A stretch of DNA of 64,000 bases from a virus (IMGVR_UViG_3300034104_003304:1-64000), one strand, 5' to 3'; counted from the stretch's first letter, positions 21,031 to 40,109 are shown. Notes: generated from the sequence alone by a model not told the origin. Program-made: numbers and translations.

Positions 21031-21815
21031 TATTCTATTACCGTGTCTGGGGTTAAGAATGGTTGATCGATAGTTCCATCTTCGTATTTATGGAGCGCAC
21101 TTAGTCGTTCGCCCTCTTTCTTCATAGCCAGCCTCATCTTCTCCATCTCTATTCCGTATTTCTTCATAGTGTCGGGATCTTGCATTAGGTGAGCTACCCA
21201 TGAAACGAAGCTTTGTTTGCTATCTTCAAGACGCTTAATGCGCTGCTCTCTGGTTCCCTTCATCTCGCGTAACATGGAAGCTTTCTTGCTTTGTAGCTCA
21301 CGATAATCCCGATTTAAACTTTCTTGGCTGGCGCGGAGTGCTGCTATCTGTCGTTCTAGATTTAAAATATAATCTTGGTCGCGGTCTTCTTTATCTTTGG
21401 CCCGTTCTTCTTTAACCATCTTTTCGAAAACCGTCATGTCCATTATATTATCTTTGTTTGACTTAAGGCAGCGGTTCATTAATAGCTCTAACTTGATAAC
21501 ATCCACCACCTGTAATTCTTCTGTTGGAAATACGTCATCTTTAAACTGGGCGATAATACGACTCCAGTGATATTTAAATAGTTCCAACTCTTCATCAGTA
21601 AACTGCCCACTTAGTTCGTGATAGTAAGGACGATCCTCAAGAGAGAAAGCCGCCGCCTCTTCGCCCGAAATACCGACTCTAAATTTCCTTTTTACAAAGT
21701 TATCAATAGATTCAACGTCACGATCTAATTTTTGCGCAATGTCTTCGACCGTCATACTATCAATAAGTCGCGCTATGATTCGCTCTTCTTCTTTGCTGAT
21801 TCTACCTTTCTTCAT
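21030..21815 (-). CDS. HTH plus coiled-coil protein (possible small terminase)
   Basis: N-terminal HTH-like TVEDIAQKLDR; long helical C-terminus; upstream in the packaging operon. Confidence 0.4.
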   Translation of the reverse strand: MKKGRISKEEERIIARLIDSMTVEDIAQKLDRDVESIDNFVKRKFRVGISGEEAAAFSLEDRPYYHELSGQFTDEELELFKYHWSRIIAQFKDDVFPTEELQVVDVIKLELLMNRCLKSNKDNIMDMTVFEKMVKEERAKDKEDRDQDYILNLERQIAALRASQESLNRDYRELQSKKASMLREMKGTREQRIKRLEDSKQSFVSWVAHLMQDPDTMKKYGIEMEKMRLAMKKEGERLSALHKYEDGTIDQPFLTPDTVIE

Positions 21816-22302
21816 AATTATGCTCCGCTAATAGTTCTTTTATTTTTAGTATTACTTCGTCACGGCGTTTTTTGGGAACATAAACATCACTTATAATTTT
21901 AAGATAGTCTGATCGGTAGTCTGATGGTAAGCACCGGTCTATAATTTTTTGCATATCCTTGGCATCTATTGTAACATCAGAGTCAAAGTCATCTTCGGGA
22001 ACATAATCTTCATAAGATAATTGTTTGGGCGATAAGATTTTCTTTTTGTCAGTTTCGTTTTTGGTATAGAAGTTGTCGCGGACGAAATTCTTTAAGCGAT
22101 TACTAAGGTGGACAGATAGGAAGTTTTCCAGTGGGCGACTTTCATCATAACGTTCAAGGGCATCCATACATATAATAAACGCCTCTTGTTTTATATCATC
22201 AACTTCATATCCGTTAAATGTATACTTAGGGGATATTCTATTTACGACAGTGTGGATTTGTTTGATAACATCATCTTTACTCATATTTTTTGGTATTTTC
22301 AT
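21802..22302 (-). CDS. Sigma-70 region 2-like factor (candidate late sigma)
   Basis: DDIKQEAFIICMDALERYDESRPLENFLSVHLSNRLKNFVR resembles sigma region 2. Confidence 0.65.
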   Translation of the reverse strand: MKIPKNMSKDDVIKQIHTVVNRISPKYTFNGYEVDDIKQEAFIICMDALERYDESRPLENFLSVHLSNRLKNFVRDNFYTKNETDKKKILSPKQLSYEDYVPEDDFDSDVTIDAKDMQKIIDRCLPSDYRSDYLKIISDVYVPKKRRDEVILKIKELLAEHNYEER

Positions 22303-23081
22303 TCCTGACATGATCTCCACTCTAGTATTCTCCAAACTTCTCCGTCATAAAATTTTAAATCTTTACCATCAAATCCCAGAGTGCCCTTTTTATCTAATAT
22401 TTTGTCGTTGGAGTTTAGCTGTAGTGAGTCTGTGCATAATCTTTTAGCATCAAGTTTTGATGTTCGAAGAGATAACTGTTTAGAATATGTTGTAATAACC
22501 TGTAAAATAGCGGCTATTAATTCTGGATTAGAGAAAAGTTCGCTAAATGGGATTGACTGAACATTGTTGTTTAGTCTTCCTAAGAATGAGAAATTATCTA
22601 TCGCAACGGGGTTGGGGCAGAATGGTTCCGATGATGCTATTACACAATTAGAATTAGCTAATAATTCTAAATAAGAAGATGGCAGCACGGAGTGAGCTAC
22701 TAAGTATTCGGGGCTATCGCATTTAAAATGATAAGGACCATTATTACATTGAGTTATTTTATTATTTGAGTTTAAGTATATGGGCAAGTGTCTTTTTAAG
22801 ATAGTCTTATTATCTAAAGATTCTATGTGGCCAATACCATACTCTGAGATGATAACCTTATTATTGTTACCTATCTGCTCAATATTATAGAAGAAACTAC
22901 AGTCGTGCCCGAATATAGTTTGAAAAGAAGTATCTATATCTATAGTGGAATTAAGAGAAAGTGATATAGATTTATTAAATTCAGATAGGGCTTTTAGTCC
23001 CTTAAGTTCTAAATCGTTGTTATTATGATTGCTAACAGCTAGCTCAATCGCTGACGATTTGCTCGTTTTCAGATTCATCAT
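22299..23081 (-). CDS. Hypothetical protein
   Basis: 260-aa ORF in operon. Confidence 0.6.
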   Translation of the reverse strand: MMNLKTSKSSAIELAVSNHNNNDLELKGLKALSEFNKSISLSLNSTIDIDTSFQTIFGHDCSFFYNIEQIGNNNKVIISEYGIGHIESLDNKTILKRHLPIYLNSNNKITQCNNGPYHFKCDSPEYLVAHSVLPSSYLELLANSNCVIASSEPFCPNPVAIDNFSFLGRLNNNVQSIPFSELFSNPELIAAILQVITTYSKQLSLRTSKLDAKRLCTDSLQLNSNDKILDKKGTLGFDGKDLKFYDGEVWRILEWRSCQE

Positions 23082-23327: not shown

Positions 23328-24170
23328 ATGGGAAGACCAAAGGGTTCAAAAGATACTATAAAAAGAAAATCAAGAAATCAATTTGGATTTGGGGAAAAAG
23401 ATGCAAAAATTATTAAAGATTTACGTAATAGTCATCTCAATATGAGAGATATATCTAAATTAACTGGGTACAGCGAGACTCAAATTAAATCGATTTGTAA
23501 AACTTTTGATATTAAAACAATAAATACTGTACTCTTATCATTAAAAAAAATTGTTGATACAAAAACCAAGCAGTGTGGAGTATATGTTATAGCTTTACAT
23601 AGAAATGATGGATATGTGGGTTACTACGTGGGGAGTTCAACTAATATAGGGGATAGGTATAATAATCACTATTCTGCTCTTTCTAATGGAAACCATTATA
23701 ATAAAAAATTACAAGAAGATTTTATGCAAATGAGCGCAATTAAATGTTATGTTTGGTCGATTGAAGATGAACAAAATTTATTGAGAGAGGAATCAAAAAT
23801 AATTAATAAATATTGTGGACTATATAATACTTGGCGCAACATTGCATTGGATGAAGTTTCTAAAATTTTAAAAATTGTGAGTGAAAGATTCACAGAAGAT
23901 AAATATGAAATACATGAGTCAGGTTGCTGGTTTTGGAAAAAAACTCATAAAAATGGATATGGTAGGGATATAAGTATCAGATACAATGAAAAATTATTTC
24001 ATTTTAAACCACATAGAATATCGCTGTTTAAATATAATGGTATCTATCCAGAATTAGTGAGACACAAGTGTAATAATAGAAGTTGTGTTTGTCCGAATCA
24101 TTTGGAGGGTGGATCGTATAAAGACAATAGTAACGATAGGACTCAAATGTTATCGGAGAGGTTTGAGTAA
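23328..24170 (+). CDS. Homing endonuclease-like protein with GIY-YIG and HNH/His-Cys domains
   Basis: GVYVI...YYVGSS...R..H and GCWFW...HRISL...VRHKCNNRSCVCPNHL. Confidence 0.75.
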   Translation: MGRPKGSKDTIKRKSRNQFGFGEKDAKIIKDLRNSHLNMRDISKLTGYSETQIKSICKTFDIKTINTVLLSLKKIVDTKTKQCGVYVIALHRNDGYVGYYVGSSTNIGDRYNNHYSALSNGNHYNKKLQEDFMQMSAIKCYVWSIEDEQNLLREESKIINKYCGLYNTWRNIALDEVSKILKIVSERFTEDKYEIHESGCWFWKKTHKNGYGRDISIRYNEKLFHFKPHRISLFKYNGIYPELVRHKCNNRSCVCPNHLEGGSYKDNSNDRTQMLSERFE

Positions 24171-24285: not shown

Positions 24286-24367
24286 CGTAAGTCCTTATTT
24301 ATCAACGATTTAGGGTTTAGGTGTCCCGCCCGCCGCGTCGTAAGTCTTTATATACCAACACTTTACG
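24286..24367. repeat. 82-bp paired-palindrome element copy 1 (C-rich core)
   Basis: cgtaagtcctt-atttatc-aacgatttagg / 24 bp / cgtaagtcttt-atatacc-aacactttacg. Confidence 0.9.
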
Positions 24368-24378
24368 TCAAGTTCGCG

Positions 24379-24395
24379 TAGCAAACGATGTGCCA
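24379..24395 (-). promoter_or_regulatory. Sigma54 -24/-12 motif facing element 1
   Basis: Minus strand TGGCACATCGTTTGCTA. Confidence 0.65.
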
Positions 24396-24450
24396 TGTAT
24401 TCTAGGAAAGATTTTTTGTCATTTGGCATGAAAATATATTTGAAAAAATC

Positions 24451-24490
24451 CAAAGATTTCGCTTGACGATGACGATATATACTGTATAAT
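24451..24490 (+). promoter_or_regulatory. Nested sigma70 / sigma28-like promoter
   Basis: TTGACG-N16-TATAAT overlapping CAAAG-N15-GACGATA. Confidence 0.7.
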
Positions 24491-24529
24491 AGAAGTACAA
24501 GAGAGAACGATAGAGAAAAGGAAAAGAAA

Positions 24530-24745
24530 ATGAACAACAACGAAATCAAGCTGGGCGATGTGGTGGTGTGGAACTTTGTGTTTGACAGGCCGGAAGATGA
24601 TGGGGTTGTTGTGTCTGTCAAGGGTAATAAGGTGGAAGTGGAGTATAAGGGATACGTGATGGGTGGTGGATCTAAGGTATATAGGGAATGGCTGAACGTT
24701 GACGAAATCATGCTGAAATCGGAATATGATTCGCAGTATATCTGA
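24530..24745 (+). CDS. Small early hypothetical protein
   Basis: Own promoter and purine-rich leader. Confidence 0.7.
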   Translation: MNNNEIKLGDVVVWNFVFDRPEDDGVVVSVKGNKVEVEYKGYVMGGGSKVYREWLNVDEIMLKSEYDSQYI

Positions 24746-24826
24746 AAAATATTTCTAAGGTACTTGACACTGGCCAACCGATACTATATAATACAGAGAC
24801 AAGAGAAAAGGAAAAGGAATAGAAAA

Positions 24827-25030
24827 ATGGAAAAGGTCAATAGCGTAAACGGTTTCATCAGCAGTCTCCCCAAGATTCGCAAGCGTAGAATCTGGAAAGT
24901 GATCATCAACGGTACAGTTGTTCAAGGTGTTTCCGCTGATGATAATCGCAAATCAACTGCACAAGCGTATATCGCAAACAAGTATCCCGGTCAGGTTTTC
25001 ACTCTGGAATTTTCTCACTGGAAAATCTAA
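24827..25030 (+). CDS. Small early protein, paralogue of 25663-25881
   Basis: MEKVNSVNGFISSLPKI...DNRKSTAQAYI; own sigma70 promoter. Confidence 0.75.
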   Translation: MEKVNSVNGFISSLPKIRKRRIWKVIINGTVVQGVSADDNRKSTAQAYIANKYPGQVFTLEFSHWKI

Positions 25031-25070
25031 GGTACTTGACAACCCCTTGCCGATACTATATAATACAGAC

Positions 25071-25217
25071 ATGAACAACACAAAGAAAATGATTTACTGG
25101 AATACTTCTAATCGCACGGGCGACCGATATGAGGTATGGTATGATGGTAAGGTAGTCGCACGACACATTACGTTCAATGAATGTTGGAATCTTGTTCAGT
25201 CTCTCCAAGCTAAGTAA
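25071..25217 (+). CDS. Small early hypothetical protein (near-leaderless)
   Basis: ATG just after TTGACA-N17-TATAAT. Confidence 0.55.
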   Translation: MNNTKKMIYWNTSNRTGDRYEVWYDGKVVARHITFNECWNLVQSLQAK

Positions 25218-25376
25218 GGTATATAGAATGATTACGATTATAGAATATGTTCAGTTGTTTGCTCTTATCGCATGTTGTGCGTTTATCACCTATACGGTAC
25301 ATGAGATAGGTAACGCCGTACATTCAATGCTGAACGATTGAATAGGTATACGAATGTATACTCCATAAAGACTCGA

Positions 25377-25458
25377 CGTAAACCCTTGGTAGATAAGGAC
25401 TTAGGGCGAATCGGGCGGGCCAAATTTGACGTAACTCCTTACGCCACAACGACTTACG
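25377..25458. repeat. 82-bp paired-palindrome element copy 2 (G-rich core)
   Basis: cgtaaaccctt-ggtagat-aaggacttagg / 24 bp / cgtaactcctt-acgccac-aacgacttacg. Confidence 0.9.
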
Positions 25459-25493
25459 ACGTATTTCCCAATATAATCGGGTAGCGCCGCATA

Positions 25494-25528
25494 TGGCATG
25501 AGAGTTGCATATAGCAAATGGTGTGCCA
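25494..25528. promoter_or_regulatory. Two head-to-head sigma54 motifs
   Basis: Plus TGGCATGAGAGTTGCAT (25494-25510); minus TGGCACACCATTTGCTA (25528-25512). Confidence 0.6.
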
Positions 25529-25662
25529 AACTGAGGTATTCTAGAGGAAAACAATGTCAAATTCTCTTGACAATATTCTTGGGATTTTTCGCTTGCAATT
25601 TAAAGAATCCTTGGTATAATGTCGATATAAGAAGTAAGAGAGAAAGAAAGAGAAAAAGAAAA

Positions 25663-25881
25663 ATGGAAAAAACCACTAACATCAACAGTTTCATCAGCAC
25701 CCTTCCTAAGATTGCTCAAAAGAAGGTTTGGAAAGTAACCGATCAAAATGGTACGGTTGTTCAGTATGTTGGAGCTACCGATAATCGGAAAAGCTCTGCA
25801 CAAACGTACATCAATGAAAAGTACGTTGGTCAAAATCTTACCCTAACGTTTTCACACTTTAAGGGATTGATGACCCTCTAA
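25663..25881 (+). CDS. Small early protein, paralogue of 24827-25030
   Basis: MEKTTNINSFISTLPKI...DNRKSSAQTYI. Confidence 0.75.
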   Translation: MEKTTNINSFISTLPKIAQKKVWKVTDQNGTVVQYVGATDNRKSSAQTYINEKYVGQNLTLTFSHFKGLMTL

Positions 25882-26131
25882 TATGGGGGATTGACGGCAG
25901 GAAAAACTTTATAGAATAATGGAAAGAAAAGAGAAAATGGAAATGACAGTGTTTTACGTTTCGGATTGCTGCAATGTTGAAAGCAACAAAGATTATGAGA
26001 TTTGCTCACAGTGTGGCGAACACTGCCAAATCATCGTAGACGATAGCTGCGAAAAATAATTATTTAAGGCTTGACAACTAAAAAGACGATGCTATAATAG
26101 AGAAAAGAACAAAGGACAAAGGAAAAGAAAA

Positions 26132-26419
26132 ATGATGACGCTTGACAAGGTTATGGCAGGGGTTCGACAGGTTTTCGGGAGTGATTCCCACAAGGTGCGA
26201 GTGATTCAAGCCGGATCGTCGTTCAAGGTTGAGCCGAAAGAAATGATCCACGATGGGGTGTGGATTCGTTCAGAGGGTGCTATCGAAACCCAAATCAATA
26301 ATCTTTTCTATGATATGGCTTGTGAAGATTGTGCGGATGAGGCGGATTATATTCCCGGCCTTGACGATGGCGAATGGGATTCGGATGAGGATTGCTGTGG
26401 TGAAGAAGAATTTGCCTAA
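26132..26419 (+). CDS. Early hypothetical protein with acidic C-terminus
   Basis: Own promoter and purine leader. Confidence 0.7.
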   Translation: MMTLDKVMAGVRQVFGSDSHKVRVIQAGSSFKVEPKEMIHDGVWIRSEGAIETQINNLFYDMACEDCADEADYIPGLDDGEWDSDEDCCGEEEFA

Positions 26420-26946
26420 GCCTTGACAACATAAAAAACCGATGATATAATTAGAGAAGAACAGAGAACGCTAACTAAGGAAAAATGATGAAACTTTCAG
26501 AAGTAGACATTGCCATGATCGCTTACAACACTTTCGACGCGAACAACGGCCTGACCCTTGAAAACTTGGAAGAAATTAAGGAAACTAAATGAATTACGTT
26601 TCAGTCTGGATCATGGGAATGATGCTTAAGGGGATGGAAACGATATGCGAAGTGTGGCAGCGTTTCAAGGAATATGATGAAATGCAATCCAAGGGATACA
26701 TTCTTTTTAAGAATGGCAAACGGGATGATTTTTGGGCTGGACATGGCGACTAAAACTAAGAGGTGAACGGATGTACACTTTTGACTTTACAAGTATCGTA
26801 ACGGGCTATATTCTGGGCGTTTTCCTATGCTGGACAACTGTTCAAGCAATCTATCTACAGGACAAAGATGAAGACTAAACGCATGTACACTGTATGGATG
26901 ATCACCTTCATTCTGGGGTGTTTTGCAACTTATCTCGTAAACTAGA

Positions 26947-27028
26947 CGTAAACCCTTGTCAGATATAGACTTACGACTAGGCGGGCGGGCCGGATTTTTC
27001 GTAAGTCCTTACGTGCCAACAACTTACG
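26947..27028. repeat. 82-bp paired-palindrome element copy 3
   Basis: cgtaaaccctt-gtcagat-atagacttacg / 24 bp / cgtaagtcctt-acgtgcc-aacaacttacg. Confidence 0.9.
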
Positions 27029-27224
27029 TCAAGTGCCTTGTGATGATGCTTTTTTAGGCACACTATATGTAGCGTAGTGCAAAATGCTACACTCTTGCGT
27101 ATTTCAGCCAAAAACGCTAACGCAAAATGCAAAACTGTGCAGCAAAATGCTACGCCTAAAATCTAGGCACAAAAAGTAGCATAGTGTTTTCCCCGTGAAA
27201 AACGCACAAAAAATATTTTTCCGA

Positions 27225-27242
27225 TTGGCACGGGAAGTGCAT
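27225..27242 (+). promoter_or_regulatory. Sigma54-type promoter for gene 27297
   Basis: TTGGCACGGGAAGTGCAT with correct GG-to-GC spacing; predicted start coincides with the purine leader; no TTGACA present. Confidence 0.6.
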
Positions 27243-27296
27243 TTATATATGGATAGAAAAGAAGAAAAAAGAAGAAAGAAAGAAAAGAGAAAGAAA

Positions 27297-27485
27297 ATGA
27301 ATATCAAGACTTTTACCGAATCCCTCAAACCAGTTTACATTTACGATCATATGGTTCATATGAAGAATGGAAAAGCCTATAGGGTTTATCGTTGTGGTAG
27401 TGATCGTGCAGTTTACGAGTACATGAGTGCAAACGGTTTCGATACCAAAGAAATCGTAAAAATCGATCTGGTTGCCAAAAAATAG
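27297..27485 (+). CDS. Small hypothetical protein
   Basis: MNIKTFTESL after a near purine-only leader. Confidence 0.65.
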   Translation: MNIKTFTESLKPVYIYDHMVHMKNGKAYRVYRCGSDRAVYEYMSANGFDTKEIVKIDLVAKK

Positions 27486-27656
27486 GGCTTGACAAATAAA
27501 AAAAGTGTGGTATAATGTTAGAAAGAAAGAAAGAGAAAGTTATGATTGATAGAGAAAAAATGATTGCTGAAATTCAAGAAAGTTTCGCCAAGATTGGTGC
27601 AAAGCCTCTTAGCGAAAAGAGACTCAATGAAATCATTGATGAAGAAATTGCAAGAT

Positions 27657-27692
27657 TCAAGGCTTGACAACTAAAAGCCGATACTGTATAAT
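27657..27692 (+). promoter_or_regulatory. Nested sigma70 / sigma28-like promoter
   Basis: TTGACA-N17-TATAAT overlapping TCAAG-N15-GCCGATA. Confidence 0.75.
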
Positions 27693-27721
27693 AGAAAAAC
27701 AAGAAAGAAGAAAGAAAGAAA

Positions 27722-28036
27722 ATGAAAAACAAGTTTCCTATCATCGAAAACGCAAAGCGTCAAGCCCGTCTGTGCTTCCTTGGGATTGCACTTCCCACAG
27801 TTGTCAAGAGCATCGATGGAGAAATGGTGCAGGTCGAAAAGGTAATCAAGTTCAATCGCACCGCTCTAAAGAATATCGGAAAGCGTAAAACTGAAAACGT
27901 CGATCCGCGATATGTTGGCGGTGAAGATAAGATGATTGTCAAGGTAGGCAAACCGGGTAGTCGAGAGAGAGTGGAAGAATTGGCTAAACAGTATAGCGTG
28001 GTCATGAGACATGAACTGAGCGCTTTCGAGGATTGA
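27722..28036 (+). CDS. Early hypothetical protein
   Basis: 104 aa after promoter and purine leader. Confidence 0.7.
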   Translation: MKNKFPIIENAKRQARLCFLGIALPTVVKSIDGEMVQVEKVIKFNRTALKNIGKRKTENVDPRYVGGEDKMIVKVGKPGSRERVEELAKQYSVVMRHELSAFED

Positions 28037-28136
28037 GGGGGTTTTGGTAAGATAGGCAATCTAGGTAATTTGCATAAGCTGGGAAGTCTCGGCCAATCTG
28101 GCCGGATAAGATGTTTTGAAGCGTAGCCAGCGAAAA
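28037..28136 (+). repeat. Degenerate 9-bp-period GG-led array with conserved tail
   Basis: ggtaagata ggcaatcta ggtaatttg...ggaagtctc ggccaatct; related to 30676-30810. Confidence 0.55.
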
Positions 28137-28198
28137 GCCTAAATTTTATACTTGACAAAAGACGATAAAGAGTATATAATGAGAGAACAGAAAGGGAA

Positions 28199-28387
28199 AT
28201 GATGGACTCTCTAACATTAAAAGAAGTAGCAAAGATGGCCCGTGAGAATGATTTGCATATTCTTATCAAGTCTGAGGGATATGCGTTATGTGATGACAAT
28301 TTTAAAACATTGCTAGTCACAAACAGTCTTCGTAACATGGTATGGTATATTAACAACTGCGAAATCCTTGGAATTGTAAAGGTATAA
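28199..28387 (+). CDS. Hypothetical protein
   Basis: ORF after sigma70 promoter. Confidence 0.6.
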   Translation: MMDSLTLKEVAKMARENDLHILIKSEGYALCDDNFKTLLVTNSLRNMVWYINNCEILGIVKV

Positions 28388-28389
28388 AT

Positions 28390-28638
28390 ATGTACAACGG
28401 ATATGCAAATTATCAAACGTGGAATGTATGTTTGTGGATTAGTAACGATGAAATGTTGTATGGTCTAGCACAACGTTGTGAGTCTTACGAGCGTTTCAAG
28501 ATTTTTCTGCGTGAAGTTTTTGAACAGCATCCCGTTAGATTCGAAACGCCCGATGGTGTGGCGTGGAATGATAGTGGTATTGAACTGTCAGAAGTGGAAA
28601 AATATTGGGAAGAAAGTTTTTCTACAGTCGAAGCTTGA
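28390..28638 (+). CDS. Conserved small phage protein
   Basis: YNGYANYQTWNVCLWISNDE...TPDGVAW pattern recognised from phage early genes. Confidence 0.7.
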   Translation: MYNGYANYQTWNVCLWISNDEMLYGLAQRCESYERFKIFLREVFEQHPVRFETPDGVAWNDSGIELSEVEKYWEESFSTVEA

Positions 28639-28703
28639 CAACTGCCGATCTATACTGTAAGATAGCGTAAGTGTTTTTCAATTAGCAAAAGAGGAATTTT
28701 AGT

Positions 28704-29093
28704 ATGAGTGATTTTCTGGTGATTTGTTTGGTTGCTGCTGTTGTTTTCTGTGCGACTTTTTATTGTGTGTATCGTGGAGTGTACGGTTCGCTGTCCTCCG
28801 CGAGTCTTGGTGAAGTTTATAACTTTCACTATCTTCAGCCTCTCACGGGAGAGTACGAGCGTTATCTTGCTAAGGTAATCTCTAAGCGTGATATGAAAGA
28901 TCATATTCACAGGTTGAATGTAACGAGTGACTATCGTTTGCACGATAAAGAGTTTCAACGTACTAACACGCTTGTAACTTGCGAATTGTCAAACGGTGAA
29001 ATTCGTAACTTTTATGCTGAACGTGTTAAAGATTGTTACAGGTCTATCTTTGGTAGACTTTTGTACAGTACGGGCATGGCTTGCATGTTCTAA
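28704..29093 (+). CDS. Hypothetical protein with N-terminal TM helix
   Basis: Hydrophobic N-terminus; GEIRNFYAERV weakly WYL-like. Confidence 0.65.
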   Translation: MSDFLVICLVAAVVFCATFYCVYRGVYGSLSSASLGEVYNFHYLQPLTGEYERYLAKVISKRDMKDHIHRLNVTSDYRLHDKEFQRTNTLVTCELSNGEIRNFYAERVKDCYRSIFGRLLYSTGMACMF

Positions 29094-29111
29094 AGATTCG
29101 CCAAAAGTAGC

Positions 29112-29193
29112 CGTAAACCCTTGCCACCAAAGGACTTACGGCGAATTTGGCCCGCCCCGCGAATCGTAAACCCTTACGCACCAACGACTTAGG
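29112..29193. repeat. 82-bp paired-palindrome element copy 4 (C-rich core)
   Basis: cgtaaaccctt-gccacca-aaggacttacg / 24 bp / cgtaaaccctt-acgcacc-aacgacttagg. Confidence 0.9.
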
Positions 29194-29204
29194 GCAAGTG
29201 GTGA

Positions 29205-29220
29205 CGCAAAAGCTGTGCCA
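29205..29220 (-). promoter_or_regulatory. Sigma54 motif facing element 4
   Basis: Minus strand TGGCACAGCTTTTGCG. Confidence 0.65.
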
Positions 29221-29304
29221 AAAATATTCTGAAAATTCTCTATAGATTTCCCTTGACATGGCCGATATATCCTATATAATGAATTACACAAGGAGAAAGA
29301 AACC

Positions 29305-29475
29305 ATGCGATACGATTTTGATGATGTCAACGCGATTCTCTCTGCTCTTGCCGATGCGGACATTGTGGAACCGGTGGTCGAGCCGATTGATGATCCTAGC
29401 GTGGAAGTTGATTTTTGGGATTGGGCCGATGTGGTTGGTGTGGTTGACGAGTTTGTTCCAGAGGAGTACGTGTGA
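29305..29475 (+). CDS. Small acidic protein (56 aa)
   Basis: Manual translation MRYDFDDVNAIL...VPEEYV; AGGAG RBS; below the ORF-track cutoff. Confidence 0.65.
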   Translation: MRYDFDDVNAILSALADADIVEPVVEPIDDPSVEVDFWDWADVVGVVDEFVPEEYV

Positions 29476-29544
29476 TGCCGATACTGTTTATTGTTGCTTA
29501 CTTTTGTTTTTTCTATCTTGCAACCATTATTGAGGACTAATAAC

Positions 29545-29781
29545 ATGAGCCACCCTGACCCGTTGTTCGATGCCGATAACTCTTACGAGGATGATGACAT
29601 GGAAATCCATGATGATACCGCTGATGCTCTATATGATGATTACCACGACTTCCATAATGATAGCATGGATGGCGATCACGATTCCGCGATGACTTCCTGC
29701 GGATGGGGAACCGATGAGAATTACGGTCATTATGGTGATGACATTGAATCTTTCCACGATTACTATGGAGATGATTGCTGA
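29545..29781 (+). CDS. Extremely acidic small protein
   Basis: 78 aa, 26 D/E, no K/R; GAGG RBS. Confidence 0.7.
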   Translation: MSHPDPLFDADNSYEDDDMEIHDDTADALYDDYHDFHNDSMDGDHDSAMTSCGWGTDENYGHYGDDIESFHDYYGDDC

Positions 29782-30185
29782 TGAACTATCGCAAAATTGC
29801 TACCGGTATGATCGAAGCAACGTATGATAATTATAAGGATTGGAAAAAGAATGAAGACTTTGACTTGATTGAAGAATTGAATGCTCACAATGATGACATT
29901 CCAGTATGGCGTGACATGAGTGACAATACTAAGTGTGCCGCTATTGAGTATGTATACAAGAATCGTAAGACTATTGAGCTACACTCTGGATGTGTTGAGG
30001 CTTGGGTTCAAGCTACGGCGTATTTCATGTTGTATAGCTGTGCTACTTGTATGATTCACGACGGAGAGCCATCTTTAGAAATGTTTTTTGATGATATGGA
30101 TTTCATGATGGATGAAGACATTCTTGAAGATAGTGATGTTCAAGAGGCGTTGGGAATTAGTTCTGATTTTACTGGTAAGTTTTAA
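29781..30185 (+). CDS. Acidic hypothetical protein
   Basis: Translationally coupled ORF. Confidence 0.65.
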   Translation: MNYRKIATGMIEATYDNYKDWKKNEDFDLIEELNAHNDDIPVWRDMSDNTKCAAIEYVYKNRKTIELHSGCVEAWVQATAYFMLYSCATCMIHDGEPSLEMFFDDMDFMMDEDILEDSDVQEALGISSDFTGKF

Positions 30186-30198
30186 ATAGAAAGTATAT

Positions 30199-30435
30199 AT
30201 GAACATTGGATATCAAAAATTTGTAGAGTTTGATAACGGCTATACCGCTAGCGTTGTATGTAATGATATGAGCTACGGTAGTGATCGTGGACTATTTGAG
30301 ATTGCAGTATTAGTAAACAATGAGATTGTATACGATACGCCCGTTGCTCACGGTGTAGTCGGCTTTCTTGATTTTCAAGAGGTAGCAGACACACTCAAAC
30401 AAATTGAGCAACTTCCTAGACGTAAACCCTTGTGA
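30199..30435 (+). CDS. Conserved small phage protein
   Basis: FDNGYTASVV...SYG...GLFEIAVL; ends RKPL* inside element 5. Confidence 0.7.
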   Translation: MNIGYQKFVEFDNGYTASVVCNDMSYGSDRGLFEIAVLVNNEIVYDTPVAHGVVGFLDFQEVADTLKQIEQLPRRKPL

Positions 30436-30502
30436 ATAAAGGACTTACGACTCGGCGGGCGGGGGAAATTTGTCCTAAGTCCTTATCTGACATATACTTA
30501 CG
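30421..30502. repeat. 82-bp paired-palindrome element copy 5
   Basis: cgtaaaccctt-gtgaata-aaggacttacg / 24 bp / cctaagtcctt-atctgac-atatacttacg. Confidence 0.9.
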
Positions 30503-30675
30503 ACGAGTTTTTGATTAAAGAAAGTGCTTGACAGGTGTCGATACATAGGGTAGACTACACTAGGAGGATCATATGAGTAAAATTGTAGACGATAGAGAGT
30601 ATGTGCAACCTGAGCAGGATACGATAGATTTTCTGGTTTACGCAGAATATATAAACTGGCAACTTAGGCAAATTG

Positions 30676-30810
30676 GGCAAGATGTGAGAGATGCGATATC
30701 TAGGCAAGATGGGCAATCTGGGTAAGATAGGGGGTTTGGGAGGTTTGGGTAAAGTGGGGAGTATTTGCTAAACTATACCGGTCATATGTTTTTCCGCATA
30801 GTCAGCCAAA
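30676..30810 (+). repeat. Degenerate 9-bp-period GG-led array with conserved tail
   Basis: ggcaagatg ggcaatctg ggtaagata gggggtttg ggaggtttg ggtaaagtg. Confidence 0.55.
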
Positions 30811-30821
30811 AGGAGATTTTT

Positions 30822-30983
30822 ATGAAGAATGTTCATGTGTATGATATCCTGTCAGAAGATGGTGTTGCCCTTCAAGATCTGATTATCCCTATGGATATTG
30901 GATATGAGTGGATGGACGTTTTTGAGAAGGTTCAAGGAGCATACCTTGACAACGTAGAGAGCTACAGTTATACTGAGATTTGA
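30822..30983 (+). CDS. Small acidic hypothetical protein
   Basis: AGGAG RBS, ATG 30822. Confidence 0.55.
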   Translation: MKNVHVYDILSEDGVALQDLIIPMDIGYEWMDVFEKVQGAYLDNVESYSYTEI

Positions 30984-30989
30984 CGGTTC

Positions 30990-31062
30990 GGGTCATTAGC
31001 TCAATCGGCAGAGCATCGGACTTTTAATCCGTAGGTTGAAGGTTCAAGTCCTTCATGACCCA
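30990..31062 (+). tRNA. tRNA-Lys(TTT)
   Basis: Cloverleaf; anticodon loop CTTTTAA; GGTTCAAGTCC T-arm. Confidence 0.9.
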
Positions 31063-31135
31063 TTGACATTGTTAAGGATTGTGAGTATAATATGAGGATG
31101 CGTCGTATTCACAAATATGAACTAAGGAGTAGGTT

Positions 31136-31390
31136 ATGTCTTGGCGAGATGAATTCTTTTTCTATAAGGGATATAATTGCAGGATCGAACACGAATACGA
31201 AGAAGATAACATCAAAGCATGGCATATCGTGGTTGGTCCAGATGGTAAAGAAATTACTGCCGACATAACTCCTTATGACAGTTCTACTGAAACACTACGC
31301 TTGTGGATTGACGCTGGTATGCCTAAACGTATTAACAATGGACCACTTCATCGTGAAGAACTGGAGAAGATGATCTATGAGCGAGCCTAA
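31136..31390 (+). CDS. Hypothetical protein
   Basis: AGGAG RBS, upstream sigma70 promoter. Confidence 0.65.
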   Translation: MSWRDEFFFYKGYNCRIEHEYEEDNIKAWHIVVGPDGKEITADITPYDSSTETLRLWIDAGMPKRINNGPLHREELEKMIYERA

Positions 31391-31532
31391 TGTCTATTAT
31401 ATCTATAACGAATACGTATTGGGCGACGTAGATTATTATGAGGATATCTACGAAGAAATTATTGAGTATGATGACTCCAATGAGTGGTACAATATTGATG
31501 AAGCGGAGGCTGATGTTTGAGTTGCGATGGTT

Positions 31533-31605
31533 GCCGATGTAACTCAGTTGGTAGAGTAGCAGTTTTGTAAACTGCCTGTCATCAGTTCGATTCTGATCAT
31601 CGGCT
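31533..31605 (+). tRNA. tRNA-Thr(TGT)
   Basis: gcagt-TTTGTAA-actgc. Confidence 0.9.
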
Positions 31606-31606
31606 C

Positions 31607-31677
31607 TCTGGGGTAGTGTAACGGTAGCACTAGAGATTTTGGTTCTCTTTGTCTGGGTTCGAATCCTAGCCCCAGAA
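31607..31677 (+). tRNA. tRNA-Gln(TTG)
   Basis: agaga-TTTTGGT-tctct. Confidence 0.88.
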
Positions 31678-31685
31678 TTAGATAT

Positions 31686-31757
31686 TGTCCGATAGCTCAA
31701 CGGTAGAGTAGGCGGCTGTTAACCGCTTGGTTCTAGGTTCGAATCCTAGTCGGACAG
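31686..31757 (+). tRNA. tRNA-Asn(GTT)
   Basis: gcgg-CTGTTAA-ccgc. Confidence 0.9.
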
Positions 31758-31760
31758 CTT

Positions 31761-31847
31761 GGAAGAATGGCAGAGTGGTCTAATGCACCGGTTTACTAAA
31801 CCGGCGAACCTTAATTGGTTCCGTGGGTTCGAATCCTACTTCTTCCG
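31761..31847 (+). tRNA. tRNA-Ser(ACT), unusual A34 anticodon
   Basis: ccggt-TTACTAA-accgg, long variable arm, G73. Confidence 0.82.
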
Positions 31848-31849
31848 TT

Positions 31850-31922
31850 GGCCCTATCGTCTAGTGGACTAGGACACTACCCTTTCACGGTAGATACTGG
31901 AGTTCGAATCTCCATAGGGTCA
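31850..31922 (+). tRNA. tRNA-Glu(TTC)
   Basis: ctacc-CTTTCAC-ggtag. Confidence 0.9.
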
Positions 31923-31927
31923 TTAAT

Positions 31928-32001
31928 GGGAGCGTAGATCAATTGGTTAGATCGCTAGCCTGTCACGCTAGAGGTTGCGGGTTCAAGTCCCGTCGCTCTC
32001 G
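31928..32001 (+). tRNA. tRNA-Asp(GTC)
   Basis: ctagc-CTGTCAC-gctag. Confidence 0.9.
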
Positions 32002-32011
32002 TTTTATTTGA

Positions 32012-32093
32012 TGTAAGTCTATATTTGACAAGTGTTTAGGACATGCGGGGCGGGCCGCGTTTTTCATAAGTCCTTATCTACCAACACTTTACG
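32012..32093. repeat. 82-bp paired-palindrome element copy 6
   Basis: tgtaagtctat-atttgac-aagtgtttagg / 24 bp / cataagtcctt-atctacc-aacactttacg. Confidence 0.88.
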
Positions 32094-32104
32094 ATCAATC
32101 TCTC

Positions 32105-32121
32105 TAGCAAATATCATGCCA
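32105..32121 (-). promoter_or_regulatory. Sigma54 motif facing element 6
   Basis: Minus strand TGGCATGATATTTGCTA. Confidence 0.65.
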
Positions 32122-32194
32122 GAGATTTTTCTAAAGATTTCTCTTGACCATGCCGATTTATATGGTATGATGAGTGGACACAAGGGAGAATGAT

Positions 32195-32899
32195 ATGAAA
32201 ACTGCTGATGGTAATGATAAGTTGGGTAAGGGTTGCATTGTGGTTTCGCGTCCAGTTGGCGATACTTGCCCGCCCGATTGCGACTATCTTGGAAACGGAT
32301 GCTATGCCGAAGCTACTGAAAACCAGTATAAGAATGCCCGCACGGCTGGTTTTGCGAATGTCGTGACGGAGAAGAATAAGATTCGGGCGATGATTCTTGA
32401 CGCTAAAAAGCGTGAGAAGTCTATCCGTTGGCATGAACGGGGCGATTGGTTTCTCAATGGCGAACTTGACCTAGACTATGTTGCTAATGTAACGTGGGCT
32501 TGTGAGAGTATCCTTGCCGATGGTGATACTTTGCCCGATATGTGGTTTTATACTCATATTTATGATTCCCGGCTTGTGAGTCTGGAAAAGTATATGAATG
32601 TATACGCTAGTGTGCATGACGATAACGATATGGGCGAAGCAATGGCCCAAGGTTTCAAACTGTTCGCATGGTGCGATAGTGATATGAAAGTTGCTCCCAA
32701 GCGTCCTAAGAGCAAAGTCAAAGCCGAAGCGTGGAGAAAAGAACTTCCTAAGATGGTAGTTCTCAATGCTACCAAATTCGTGGTATGCCCAGAAATCCGT
32801 CGCGGTCGCTCGGAAATCACTTGCACTGGCACTAAAGATAGTCTATCATGTGACATGTGCGTTCGTGGTCTGGCTAACGTATTATTTCCCGCCCATTGA
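32195..32899 (+). CDS. Cys-rich phage protein (gp88-like, possible Fe-S/radical-SAM-related)
   Basis: TCPPDC...GCYA, IRWHERGDW, WFYTH, C-terminal CPE...C...CDMC...FPAH. Confidence 0.6.
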   Translation: MKTADGNDKLGKGCIVVSRPVGDTCPPDCDYLGNGCYAEATENQYKNARTAGFANVVTEKNKIRAMILDAKKREKSIRWHERGDWFLNGELDLDYVANVTWACESILADGDTLPDMWFYTHIYDSRLVSLEKYMNVYASVHDDNDMGEAMAQGFKLFAWCDSDMKVAPKRPKSKVKAEAWRKELPKMVVLNATKFVVCPEIRRGRSEITCTGTKDSLSCDMCVRGLANVLFPAH

Positions 32900-32910
32900 A
32901 AGGATATAAA

Positions 32911-33441
32911 ATGACGATTGTTGGGAAGTATGAGAACGAAGGGTCGATGAGTGCTTTCTATGTTATAGATAACAAACGGGGCTTCAAAGAGTTCTGCGAC
33001 AAGTATGAAGCAGAGTATGCCCATAGTGTTCAATCTAAACTGGAAAGTTATGATATGGCTCCATATGTTATGAGTCAAGTTGGCAAGATTCGTAAGAGTA
33101 ATGGCGACCTATCATATTGGGGATATATTACAGAGATTGCAGAGACTATTGGCTGCGGTGGTAATAGTTGTAGCTGCGGCGAGTGTGATGATGATCTACA
33201 ATTTATGTATGATAAAAAGATTTGTAAACTTGCCCATGAGATGATGTATGTGGCCGGTGTAGAGTTTATGGATAGTCATATCGGTAATGTGGGATTCGTG
33301 CGACGTAATGGTAAGAAAGTCTTAGTATGTATTGATTTTGGTACAGAGAGCGTGTGTGACGAAGATTGTAGTATTGACCCATATGATGACGAAGAATGTA
33401 ACTGCCTAGTTTGTAAACAGCAAAGGGGATCGAATGTCTAA
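32911..33441 (+). CDS. Minimal protein-kinase-like fold protein
   Basis: DSHIGNVG catalytic-loop-like and CIDFG motifs. Confidence 0.55.
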   Translation: MTIVGKYENEGSMSAFYVIDNKRGFKEFCDKYEAEYAHSVQSKLESYDMAPYVMSQVGKIRKSNGDLSYWGYITEIAETIGCGGNSCSCGECDDDLQFMYDKKICKLAHEMMYVAGVEFMDSHIGNVGFVRRNGKKVLVCIDFGTESVCDEDCSIDPYDDEECNCLVCKQQRGSNV

Positions 33442-33664
33442 GTATTATATTCAGTGTGGAAGTCTACAACTTATTTTCAGTACAAATAAATCAGAGAGTG
33501 AAGCGGCAGCACAAGTATTGTGGGAAACTAACGAGCATGATGTATTAGATGAATATTTTTATATAGATGAGCGTGGATATCGTGACTATACTAGTGCAGA
33601 TAAACACACTCAAGTTATTCCTACAGAAGTTATTGTTAAACTCGCAAACTGGGAGATGGAATGA
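33434..33664 (+). CDS. Hypothetical protein
   Basis: Coupled ORF. Confidence 0.6.
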   Translation: MSKYYIQCGSLQLIFSTNKSESEAAAQVLWETNEHDVLDEYFYIDERGYRDYTSADKHTQVIPTEVIVKLANWEME

Positions 33665-33820
33665 ATTATTATTTAGAAAAGCATGATATGGAAATTATTC
33701 TGGACGCTCTTGAGTGTTTGAACGAACACATAAAAAATAATAATAGCCCTTATCCTTGGACGGTTGAGGATGTTGATTCACTTTTTCAGAGTTTTGATAA
33801 TTCTGGCGATGAATAATTGA

Positions 33821-33902
33821 CGTAAACCCTTGCTACCATTGGACTTATGGCAAGCGGGGCCGGGGTTTTTTGACGTAAACCCTTACCAGATAAAGACTTA
33901 GA
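33821..33902. repeat. 82-bp paired-palindrome element copy 7
   Basis: cgtaaaccctt-gctacca-ttggacttatg / 24 bp / cgtaaaccctt-accagat-aaagacttaga. Confidence 0.9.
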
Positions 33903-33920
33903 GAAAGTTTTGAGAAAGCC

Positions 33921-33948
33921 TAAAGGTCTAGGCGTAGAGTGTCGATAA
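33921..33948 (+). promoter_or_regulatory. Stand-alone sigma28-like promoter
   Basis: TAAAG-N15-GTCGATAA, no TTGACA. Confidence 0.55.
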
Positions 33949-33988
33949 CTAGTGTATGGACAAGAAGTGTGTAAAAAGGAGTGGAGAG

Positions 33989-34351
33989 ATGATTCAGTGG
34001 GTTGGGGTATTGATTACCCTCGTTGGTTTGGCGTATACGGGACTGAAAGATTACCAAAAAGGTGATATTAAATTCCCCCAAATGCCACAGAAACCGGCCT
34101 TGACAAAGGTGGTTTATCCGGTACAATATTGTTTAATGGCTTACGATCCGAATGTCGATAAAGTCTTTTACCTACATGAGAATGGAATATGGCATGACTA
34201 TGCACCACAACAGCGAAGATATGAATCCACGCCGCAACGTAATCAAACTCAAGGTCAAGAAGCCTTGGGAAATGGCTACGGGACACAGAGAGCATCGGGA
34301 TACAGTTATGGACAATCGGCCCAAGCGTCAACGAACACGCAAAGATATTGA
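33989..34351 (+). CDS. Membrane-anchored hypothetical protein
   Basis: GGAG RBS; N-terminal hydrophobic helix. Confidence 0.55.
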   Translation: MIQWVGVLITLVGLAYTGLKDYQKGDIKFPQMPQKPALTKVVYPVQYCLMAYDPNVDKVFYLHENGIWHDYAPQQRRYESTPQRNQTQGQEALGNGYGTQRASGYSYGQSAQASTNTQRY

Positions 34352-34511
34352 AAAGAGGTGGCGAGATGAGTACAATATGTAGTGAGTGTGGCAGCAGCAA
34401 CATAGGATATGATGCTTGGGTTGATAAGGATGGTAATGTAGTTGGTGGGCCATACGACAATTCCATGTGTATGGATTGTTCATCATCGAACATAACACAG
34501 AAAGAAATATA

Positions 34512-34841
34512 ATGCCATATATTGATGAAACAAGCCGCAAGATATTAGACCGGTCTATAGATGATCTTGCTAACATAATTACTAATCATAGTGAGCTTAA
34601 TAATGAAGATGTGATATCAGTGTTGGGCGATCTTAATTACTGTATGACTAGGCTAATTGGGCAAGTAATGGGAAGTACGTCATATGCGAAGATTGCAATG
34701 ATCACGGGCGTTGTTGAGAATGTAAAACAAGAATTCTACCGCCGAGTAGCCGTACCTTACGAAGAAGAGAAGATTGTTCAGAACGGCGACATCAAAGAAT
34801 ATAAAAATCGACACTTGACAGGACGAAATAAGATAGTATAA
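34512..34841 (+). CDS. Conserved small phage protein (MPYI family)
   Basis: MPYI...GDLNYCMTRL...ENVKQEFYRRVAVPYEEEKI.QNGD. Confidence 0.75.
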   Translation: MPYIDETSRKILDRSIDDLANIITNHSELNNEDVISVLGDLNYCMTRLIGQVMGSTSYAKIAMITGVVENVKQEFYRRVAVPYEEEKIVQNGDIKEYKNRHLTGRNKIV

Positions 34842-34842
34842 T
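34815..34842 (+). promoter_or_regulatory. Sigma70 promoter upstream of the ncRNA array
   Basis: TTGACA-N16-TATAAT. Confidence 0.75.
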
Positions 34843-34850
34843 AAAAAGAC

Positions 34851-34933
34851 AAGCAGATGAGGGCCGCTGGCAGAATGATATCAAAGTAGCCACGGTTAAA
34901 TGGCTGTCGAGTATGGCTCAACCCTATCTGCTT
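34851..34933 (+). ncRNA. Candidate structured RNA 1
   Basis: Closing stem aagcagat.aggg/ccct.atctgctt; internal tagcca/tggctg hairpin. Confidence 0.6.
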
Positions 34934-34946
34934 TATAATACAATCA

Positions 34947-35084
34947 TCGTGGGTCCATGCCTTGGACTAGGTTGGGTAACTCATTACGATAAGCATCGCA
35001 TGTCGCGGCAGCGATGATGCTGACAGTGCCGGTTACGCACTGGATAGTAGTGCCAATCTATGGGGGATCGCGTCCTCACCACGT
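34947..35084 (+). ncRNA. Candidate structured RNA 2 (multi-branch)
   Basis: cgtgg/ccacg closing stem; gtcca/tggac, taggttgg/ccaatcta, agcatc/gatgct, cagtgc/gcactg, gggga/tcctc. Confidence 0.65.
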
Positions 35085-35093
35085 TTATAATAC

Positions 35094-35279
35094 AACCAGT
35101 AACCGCTTCCAAGAGCCAGATGAATCATATAGCATGGCGCAATGTGAAAGATTCTAGGGAGGATTTCCGTGGGCGGTTTCCAACGAGAGAACCCCATTGG
35201 GAGGGTGGGTTTGAGGTTCCCAACAACAAACCTAACTAGAGTTGGATAATAGAACCGGATCGTAAAAGGTTCGCTGGTT
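35094..35279 (+). ncRNA. Candidate structured RNA 3 (possible pseudoknot)
   Basis: aaccag.aacc/ggtt..ctggtt closing stem; gaatc/gattc; cggtt-tccaac/gttgga-aaccg; ttggga/tcccaa with loop ggtttg complementary to caaacc. Confidence 0.65.
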
Positions 35280-35460
35280 TACAATACAAAGGATAAGAGA
35301 TGACTAAAGAAGAAGCGACAGTATTTATTCTTAGGGTTCTTAAAAACCCCATGATGATTATGAGTCCCGATAAAACTAAAGCTATGAACCTAGCAGCAGA
35401 GCATAACATTAGTGGTATCGATCTGATTAAAGCCTACGAAAATATTGTTATGAGGATATA

Positions 35461-35730
35461 ATGCAGTGGATTAGTTTCTTTGAAAAGCAACCAGAAGATG
35501 GTCAAGGTATCTGGTATTATGGTGAGATGATTGGTGTGTGGGCTGGTGAGTATTCTTATTCTGAGAATGATCCGTTCAGTCCACATCTTATATTTTGTCA
35601 TGAATCTCCCGGTCTGGTTGACCGAATGGATGCTCCGTGGTGGATGCCAGATGATGGAGCGATGAACAGGCCAATTAAACCATCAAAAGATTATCCAGAC
35701 GATTATCCAGCCCTTGACAAACTAAAATAA
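35461..35730 (+). CDS. Hypothetical protein (DUF551-like N-terminus)
   Basis: MQWISFFEKQPE...WWMP. Confidence 0.6.
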   Translation: MQWISFFEKQPEDGQGIWYYGEMIGVWAGEYSYSENDPFSPHLIFCHESPGLVDRMDAPWWMPDDGAMNRPIKPSKDYPDDYPALDKLK

Positions 35731-35747
35731 GCCTGTATAATAGGTAT

Positions 35748-36161
35748 ATGAAACCAAAACCATTACACGCTGAAGTTCGATTCCATCTTGCTAGTGGTAA
35801 AAACTATATGCACTGGCAAGTCAAGGTCATGCAGGGCAGGAAAAAGGTTGATGTCTATTACTACGATCCTGCTGACTATCAACTAGAGATGATTAACTGC
35901 AAGCTGGTTAACAAAGTAAATAAGGCTAAGAAGGTTAACAAGGCTGGCAAGAAAGATGTGGCAGGATGGGTAAAGTGTGACGAAGTTATTCTTACCAAAG
36001 AATCTTCTGTTGACAACCTTGAACGTGTGTTTTATAATCCTATTCGTGATGTTCACTGGCGACGAGAAAGTGACGCTGGTGAATTCGCTTGGGATGATAC
36101 TGAGTACGCTACGCTAATTACCAATAACAAACAAGTTTATATCTTAGAGGAAAGAACATGA
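35748..36161 (+). CDS. Hypothetical protein (near-leaderless)
   Basis: ATG just after TTGACA...TATAAT; VRFHLASGKNYMHWQVK, YNP motif. Confidence 0.7.
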   Translation: MKPKPLHAEVRFHLASGKNYMHWQVKVMQGRKKVDVYYYDPADYQLEMINCKLVNKVNKAKKVNKAGKKDVAGWVKCDEVILTKESSVDNLERVFYNPIRDVHWRRESDAGEFAWDDTEYATLITNNKQVYILEERT

Positions 36162-36541: not shown

Positions 36542-36608
36542 GATATAGACTTAGGGCAAACGGGGCGGGCCGCGTTCGTCGTAAGTCCTTTGCTACCAAT
36601 GACTTATG
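36527..36608. repeat. 82-bp paired-palindrome element copy 8
   Basis: cgtaaaccctt-gtaggat-atagacttagg / 24 bp / cgtaagtcctt-tgctacc-aatgacttatg. Confidence 0.9.
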
Positions 36609-36714
36609 ACCAATCTCAAAAAATTTTTCAAGTTCCCTATTGACTATGGACGATACTATGGTAGAATGATTGAAGTTACGGGATTGATAACCACTAAAGA
36701 AAAGAGGATTGATT

Positions 36715-36972: not shown

Positions 36973-36977
36973 TTTTC

Positions 36978-40100: not shown

Positions 40101-40109
40101 GTATAATAG

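Follow-up and report, generated by a model that had tools for sequence, protein, structure and literature searches.

We have studied a set of promoter-like boxes in the early region of an uncultured lake phage. The DNA analyzed, termed the window below, is the first 64 kb of the 75,859-bp IMG/VR viral contig IMGVR_UViG_3300034104_003304 (CheckV completeness 51%). Between 24.3 and 40.3 kb its early gene cassettes are split by about ten 82-bp double-palindrome elements of fixed geometry. Some of these elements are adjoined by a box with the -24 and -12 blocks of a sigma-54 (RpoN) promoter, lying on the minus strand and aimed at the palindrome. As far as the sequence tells, the best-supported conclusion is that the boxes are genuine docking sites for the sigma-54 holoenzyme, and the phage probably recruits the sigma-54 of its host. 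We assign a probability of about one half to the fuller reading, in which the boxes are RpoN sites optionally inserted into a linker of fixed helical phase, and would normally hold a silent closed complex that fires leftward only conditionally.

Sigma-54-type boxes beside the palindromic elements

The consensus of sigma-54 promoters is TGGCAC-N5-TTGC, with transcription starting about 12 nt past the C of the -12 block. An initial annotation, made from the sequence alone, had placed minus-strand motifs of this kind beside three of the elements, and all three were found where it had put them (Table 1). The -12 C lies 14, 13 and 14 bp beyond the cores of elements 1, 4 and 6, exactly as reported, and transcription would begin 2, 1 and 2 nt outside those cores, in agreement with the proposed start within 1-2 nt of the element. 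The earlier numbering of six or seven elements was not borne out, about ten copies being counted. Two further features had been overlooked: a face-to-face pair of boxes by element 2, the geometry of which (20-bp offset) recurs in relatives, and a sense site with one mismatch at 27226-27240. The minus strand has no convincing gene, as had been noted; the plus-strand genes have homologues in relatives, and the minus-strand open reading frames (ORFs) past the boxes are short overlaps.

How firmly can the boxes be assigned to the sigma-54 class? The pattern TGGCA-N6-TTGC has five matches in the 64 kb, where 0.36 would be expected at random, and none of 100 shuffled sequences reached five. All five fall within 24.3-32.2 kb. 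The GG and GC doublets are exactly 10 bp apart in these five exact matches, and the same is true in relatives. Related loci were fetched by a pattern scan of IMG/VR. In 1.19 Mb of these loci there are 127 matches with the N5 spacer, against 2 to 7 for each of the alternative spacers (N2 to N9) and 2 for the reversed pattern. Among 129 distinct instances, positions that were not used to seed the pattern are also biased: -21 (C 59, T 32), -20 (G 55, A 37), -16 (T 75), -11 (T 61, A 19), and T at -27/-28. These preferences agree with the sigma-54 motifs obtained by chromatin immunoprecipitation and sequencing in E. coli (Bonocora et al. 2015, PMC4591121). In the face-to-face pairs the mirroring is confined to the two blocks, the spacers being non-complementary. 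The conserved blocks therefore reflect recognition of each 15-mer as DNA, rather than an RNA hairpin. The sigma-54 identity proposed in the initial annotation is thus well supported by comparison, namely by the spacing, the unseeded positions, the orthologous cassettes and a cassette of the same class in the window, with enhancer and promoter (see below).

The position of the boxes is sharply defined as well. A profile of the element was built from the nine clearest copies of the window, leaving out the tenth near 40.2 kb. It finds 276 full elements in 72 fetched loci, including complete genomes of 160-238 kb with terminal repeats. An antisense motif lies near the element edge in about 43 of 246 elements (up to two mismatches, mirrored calls counted), and some 10-17% of elements in relatives carry one, consistent with the earlier remark that only some copies do. 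The offset of 13-14 bp is kept in related phages; the antisense motif peaks at +6/+7 from the edge of the 93-nt element, with 24 exact matches at 265 elements. The orientation is one-sided. Every exact element-adjacent site with a callable gene direction (29/29) is antisense and on the promoter side, with none on the other. Gene direction was taken from local GC skew, the ORF-length method having left 184 of 269 elements undecided. Sixty of the 103 orientable sites are located within 70 nt downstream of an element, and slots recur at about +7 (antisense), +29 (sense) and +49 (antisense) from its edge. The sites of complete relatives are concentrated in the initial 5-8 kb of the early region, by the divergent junction and the gene for the phage sigma factor.

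The box beside element 4 is invariant in five orthologous cassettes. The length of the spacer on its element side is kept, and indels of up to about 40 nt occur on the distal side. Between cassettes the adjoining 6-7-nt spacer varies in sequence and is constant in length. The box behaves as an optional insert, adding about 21-31 bp to the linker between element and promoter. Cassettes that bear it keep the helical phase, with distances from element to -35 of 49, 50, 50, 59, 59 and 71 bp (n = 6).

The phase is a general property of the elements. The distance from the core to the next -35 in related loci is 28/29, 39 or 50 bp (Rayleigh R = 0.56, p ~ 1e-9), which fits the element being an operator that acts on the early promoter. 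The core from CGTAA to TTACG measures exactly 82 bp in 117 of 180 copies, and the pattern TAA-N4-TT-N7-AA-N4-TTA is invariant at 94-100% (mostly 100%) in both halves, with no compensatory change. Invariant arms lacking covariation point to an operator bound by a protein on DNA rather than to a helix formed in RNA.

Some copies have the GC-rich core that separates the two palindromes in flipped orientation, among them elements 1, 4 and 9 of the window (24286-40290), in a comparison that takes in loci L006-L123. Among 62 scorable clusters without a box, 49 have a core whose coding strand is rich in G, versus 3 of 8 that adjoin a box (p = 0.02; rank test p = 0.005). Folded as RNA, box-adjacent elements are more stable on the minus strand than on the plus strand (-5.9 versus -0.3 kcal/mol, p = 0.009), a difference with p = 0.05 once similar copies are collapsed. 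Each of these two signals rests on about 20 cases. Both are compatible with the core having a function that depends on the strand of the transcript passing through it.

Table 1. Coordinates of elements, boxes, promoters and associated features in the window
Feature	Position	Strand	Remarks
Element 1	24286-24367		double palindrome, core CGTAA...TTACG; GC core inverted
Sigma-54-type -24/-12 box	24379-24395	-	-12 C at 24381; predicted +1 ~24369, outside element 1
Sigma-70-type early promoter	24463-24490	+	cassette after element 1; 11/12 match
Element 2	25377-25458
Sigma-54-type box, sense	25494-25508	+	half of face-to-face pair right of element 2
Sigma-54-type box, antisense	25514-25528	-	other half of the pair
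Element 3	26947-27028		without adjoining antisense box
Enhancer-like cluster	27069-27155	+	three GCAAAATGC(T/A)A(C/A) repeats at 27079, 27122 and 27142
Sigma-54-type promoter, sense	27226-27240	+	one mismatch (G at -15); predicted +1 ~27252
Small ORF	27297-27485	+	62 aa; behind sense sigma-54 promoter
Hairpin of 13 pairs, then U-run	29110-29142	-	left palindrome of element 4; terminator-like end for a ~95-nt antisense RNA
Element 4	29112-29193		GC core inverted
Sigma-54-type box	29205-29220	-	-12 C at 29206; predicted +1 ~29194, outside element 4
Sigma-70-type early promoter	29253-29280	+	cassette after element 4; 12/12 match
Element 6	32012-32093		directly after tRNA cluster
Sigma-54-type box	32105-32121	-	-12 C at 32107; predicted +1 ~32095, outside element 6
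Sigma-70-type early promoter	32144-32171	+	cassette after element 6

A sense promoter with an enhancer-like cluster, and its setting in the phage

The same window contains a sense sigma-54-type promoter laid out in the canonical, enhancer-dependent manner. The repeats of the cluster that follows element 3 are halves of a 17-bp dyad, TGTAGC-N5-GCTACA, that is intact in relatives. The sense box begins 84 nt after the last repeat, with an A/T-rich stretch between, and is followed by a purine-rich leader and the ATG of the 62-aa ORF. No sigma-70-type promoter was found between element 3 and this ATG, and the ORF has no homologue in the fetched relatives. The module of enhancer and promoter recurs in several related loci, where it precedes different small genes, and a sigma-54-type site stands at exactly 84 nt in 7 of the 18 repeat clusters examined, that of the window included. 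The presence of this conserved module in the same window makes the sigma-54 reading of the antisense boxes credible.

The window has two arms of opposite polarity. From 1 to 23 kb the minus strand encodes virion and packaging proteins, the terminase among them. From 23.3 kb the coding strand is the plus strand, and small cassettes of genes follow very strong sigma-70-type promoters, of which 12 in the early region score a perfect 12/12. The window also encodes nine transfer RNAs (tRNAs) and rIIA. The contig recurs nearly unchanged across many lake-water metagenomes; the 24 sequencing runs listed for it are all of lake DNA, and none is of RNA. Cultured phages are only distant kin; various phages match its terminase, ligase and RIIA at no more than 29-40% identity. 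A megablast search of cultured phages with 24-33 kb gave no match. This was also true for tblastn with a 335-aa minus-strand ORF (10175-11182) that matches no family.

A divergent phage factor of the sigma-70 family, resembling those of the extracytoplasmic-function type, is encoded near the junction with the early region (21802-22335, minus strand). Its gene is the second of a minus-strand cluster, after ORF 22299-23081, and has the same place in four complete relatives. Could this factor be the reader of the boxes, or the boxes serve its expression? We rejected the former since the 11-12-bp spacing of the blocks is unfit for -35/-10 recognition, and the latter, a leftward sigma-54 promoter for the sigma-factor operon, because relatives have plus-strand early genes between the first box and the operon. 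Between the late operon and element 1 is a gene for an HNH endonuclease (23328-24170, plus strand), probably a mobile insertion because its homologues occupy other positions in two relatives. Auxiliary genes encode a GDP-mannose 4,6-dehydratase (18868-19977, minus strand), and on the plus strand a UvdE UV endonuclease (42600-43565), a trypsin-like protease (56470-57240) and ThyX (58321-58971).

The early promoters behind the antisense boxes (24449-24490, 29239-29280 and 32130-32171) form one family containing TAAAG-N15-GCCGAT, which resembles a sigma-28/SigD motif nested inside the sigma-70 promoter. A T-run to the right of box-free elements was considered as a terminator U-tract that the box replaces. 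This was dropped; it is a T-rich linker directly before the -35, and may equally be an upstream promoter element. In one relative (locus L051, upstream of the gene at 6298-6999) an unrelated palindrome pair of the form CTGCCAAAAYGGCAG takes the place of the element before the same conserved gene.

Full elements were also encountered in contigs assigned to bacteria and archaea, exclusively on short contigs of about 40-45% GC in metagenome-assembled genomes (MAGs) of unrelated phyla (loci L124-L146: Micavibrio, Nitrospinaceae, Planctomycetaceae, Planktophila, Thalassolituus, Methylococcaceae and Bathyarchaeia). These are phage contigs mis-binned into the MAGs. The scan of genome contigs gave no bacterial chromosome with a full element, and matches on long chromosomes are chance single hairpins. 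A search of five MAGs and of 401 genomes sampled from a single class for the dyad followed by a sigma-54 box after N55-85 gave no match; the sample is about 1%, and is no evidence of absence.

Competing explanations of the antisense boxes

In the reading that we favor, host sigma-54 holoenzyme would dock at boxes in the linker between the palindrome and the sigma-70-type promoter of the cassette. The boxes always face the palindrome, with starts predicted just outside it. A closed and silent sigma-54 polymerase may be held there beside the occupant of the palindrome, immediately upstream of the early promoter, and might influence the neighboring cassettes. Leftward firing would require the activity of a host enhancer-binding ATPase, such as one bound to the cluster at 27.07-27.16 kb, and the resulting RNA would open with the palindrome and then run antisense to the preceding cassette. 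The strict offset, one-sided orientation and preserved phase argue for a physical coupling with the palindrome occupant and the early promoter, rather than a mere sink. The antisense boxes are probably silent for the most part because they have no enhancer here, like most sigma-54 sites of E. coli (PMC4591121).

A more elaborate form of this idea, which we regard as speculative and unlikely, makes the palindrome, bound by a putative phage regulator, the closed sigma-54 polymerase and the sigma-70 promoter one phased nucleoprotein switch. Docking of the sigma-54 polymerase and its release by the host ATPase would couple single early cassettes to the signaling state of the host, and sigma-54 would then be an architectural or regulatory element and not a promoter for a product.

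Several observations weigh against the favored reading. The -24 and -12 blocks are also a direct repeat one helical turn apart, which some other two-domain or dimeric protein could recognize. Neither the bacterial enhancer-binding protein domain (PF00158) nor the DNA-binding domain of sigma-54 (PF04552) was found in the contig or in five complete relatives, so that the reader and the activator must both be supplied by the host. Enhancer-like repeats of the type at 27.1 kb are absent near the boxes at 24.4, 29.2 and 32.1 kb. No credible gene lies downstream of the antisense boxes, and a general terminator is not seen: a minus-strand U-run past the element is not enriched (29% versus 17%, p = 0.23). 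The box is moreover dispensable. That beside element 6 has no counterpart in 8 of the 11 related cassettes that share its downstream gene, the highly conserved DUF7227; of the other three, one has an identical box at a different offset, one a sense box, and one a different palindrome altogether. Lastly, the box stays linked to the cassette downstream of it rather than to the upstream gene opposite its antisense reading, making a gene-specific antisense target upstream unlikely.

What else might the boxes be? One view is that the polymerase is parked there and never fires, acting as a decoy or sink that titrates host sigma-54, or as a roadblock or insulator that blocks read-through from upstream. 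In its favor, the antisense boxes lack enhancer, gene and terminator, and sigma-54 in E. coli is inactive at most of its sites (PMC4591121). Relatives hold tandem, back-to-back and face-to-face arrays of boxes with a periodicity of 20-26 bp, and one of them (G003, locus L153, 5905-5962 and 7317-7374) has two triple arrays of antisense, sense and antisense boxes with gaps of 8 and 5 bp; such geometries cannot all be productive promoters. A sink, however, requires neither a fixed offset nor a fixed orientation, and the 4-5 sites per genome here would titrate weakly. The roadblock is disfavored by the E. coli data, where RNA polymerase:sigma-54 bound within genes was accompanied by lowered expression in 3 of 85 (p = 0.47; PMC4591121). 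Some relatives have divergent pairs in which one enhancer cluster is shared by an antisense box and a sense promoter, suggesting that an antisense box can fire. On balance we think permanent parking unlikely.

If the boxes do fire, each might be a self-contained sigma-54-dependent gene for a small antisense RNA, an RNA of about 95 nt that begins with the palindrome, folds into a double or long hairpin, stops just past the element and pairs with the border palindromes on plus-strand transcripts. The position of the predicted start agrees with this, and its base is a plus-strand C in 79% of copies among the relatives, so the minus-strand RNA would begin with G. Element 4 offers a terminator-like end in its minus-strand hairpin and U-run, and is the only one to resemble a full small transcription unit. 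The stabler minus-strand fold of box-adjacent elements, and the tendency of their GC core to flip so that the minus-strand RNA is G-rich, also go in this direction, and RNAs dependent on sigma-54 are known, for example GlmY and GlmZ (PMC3045617). Yet elements 1 and 6 have no U-run, and terminators are not enriched past elements in general. The invariance of the arms at TAA/TT/AA/TTA without compensatory change speaks for protein recognition of DNA, most elements have no promoter at all, and an Rfam scan of 23-41 kb returned tRNAs only, with no family for the element. In general there is no support for a discrete antisense RNA with a double hairpin, and we consider this explanation improbable.

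The likeness to sigma-54 promoters might instead be a coincidence, the boxes being operators of some other DNA-binding protein, either of the phage or a host response regulator that recognizes direct repeats one turn apart. TGGCA and TTGC(A/T) are near-repeats 11 bp apart, the arrays in relatives are periodic, and extra TGGCA half-sites that lack a -12 block occur nearby, for example to the right of element 1. The phage has many unannotated small early proteins as well as its own sigma-70-family factor. Against such an operator, the unseeded positions match the preferences of sigma-54 specifically, and sense copies stand at the classical distance behind triple dyad repeats, before genes that have no other promoter. 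The spacing of the blocks is, as noted, unsuited to the phage factor. We judge this explanation rather improbable.

There remains an explanation by descent, in which element and box are copied together by recombination at the palindrome edge, and the antisense boxes are neutral passengers of a class of promoter that acts in the sense orientation. The box is indeed gained or lost as a short indel between near-identical cassettes, once in the sense orientation, and cassettes are shuffled among relatives in the manner described for the PeSL cassettes of T4-type phages (PMC2839356). Inheritance by itself would not maintain the length of a 6-7-nt spacer while its sequence changes, nor leave a box invariant across orthologues whose coding sequences have diverged to about 50-75% amino-acid identity. 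The orientation of adjacent sites (29 to 0) and the retention of helical phase on insertion are equally at odds with it, and we find it very improbable.

Comparison with known systems

Transcription by sigma-54 is usually viewed as a cellular circuit for stress, nitrogen and motility. Here a clade of abundant uncultured freshwater phages, the complete genomes of which were described above, carries sigma-54-type sites in two forms: a canonical enhancer-dependent promoter, and enhancer-less, backward-facing boxes locked to a boundary palindrome. Full-text literature searches gave no paper on a virulent-type phage building sigma-54 promoters into its early region. If host RpoN reads the boxes, these phages would sense a host signaling pathway through a host activator, and the dyad TGTAGC-N5-GCTACA would offer a way to identify the activator as well as the host. 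Natural variants of one cassette with and without the box make its function directly testable.

Classical enhancer-dependent sigma-54 promoters include glnAp2 and pspA. Those of glmY and glmZ have three GlrR sites upstream of the sigma-54 promoter, plus integration host factor (PMC3045617). The phage boxes resemble such promoters in their -24 GG and -12 GC blocks, exact spacing and extended consensus, and the sense copy at 27226-27240 is also preceded, like glmY/glmZ, by two to three dyad repeats at 85-150 bp and by an A/T-rich stretch. In contrast to classical promoters, the antisense boxes are directed away from genes, lack any enhancer within 200 bp and border on a palindrome at their transcribed side, within a virulent-type early region and with no activator gene in the phage.

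Most sigma-54 sites of E. coli are occupied by inactive holoenzyme, many of them being antisense or far from genes, and expression was not lowered where the polymerase was bound within genes (Bonocora et al. 2015, PMC4591121). The antisense boxes are similar in being high-quality motifs with no gene close downstream; some of the E. coli sites, bound by silent holoenzyme, are moreover conserved between species. The phage sites differ in that they are intergenic, lie 6-7 nt from a repeated element and occupy a phased linker before strong sigma-70 promoters.

On the transcribed side, a dyad region in the initial ~100 nt recalls the flagellar promoters of Vibrio that have downstream FlrC enhancers (PMC6504787). 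The likeness is one of layout only; a sigma-54 box is missing from about 85% of the phage elements, and no AAA+ activator was found. The small RNAs dependent on sigma-54, GlmY/GlmZ (PMC3045617) and Qrr, share the arrangement of a sigma-54 promoter before a short structured non-coding RNA. Unlike them, the phage boxes have neither an enhancer nor a consistent terminator, and the putative RNA is a repeat element that is mostly promoterless.

Among phages there is a parallel with the PeSL cassettes of T4-type phages, where shuffled cassettes of small genes are bordered by a strong sigma-70-like early promoter and a stem-loop or palindrome (Arbiol et al. 2010, PMC2839356). The early region studied here has the same organization, with its perfect promoters, elements between cassettes and a cassette order that varies between relatives, a terminator role of the element being putative. 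It departs from what is described for PeSL in that its palindrome, a rigid double dyad of 82 bp whose bases are invariant, is in helical phase with the promoter, and in that some cassettes add a sigma-54-type box.

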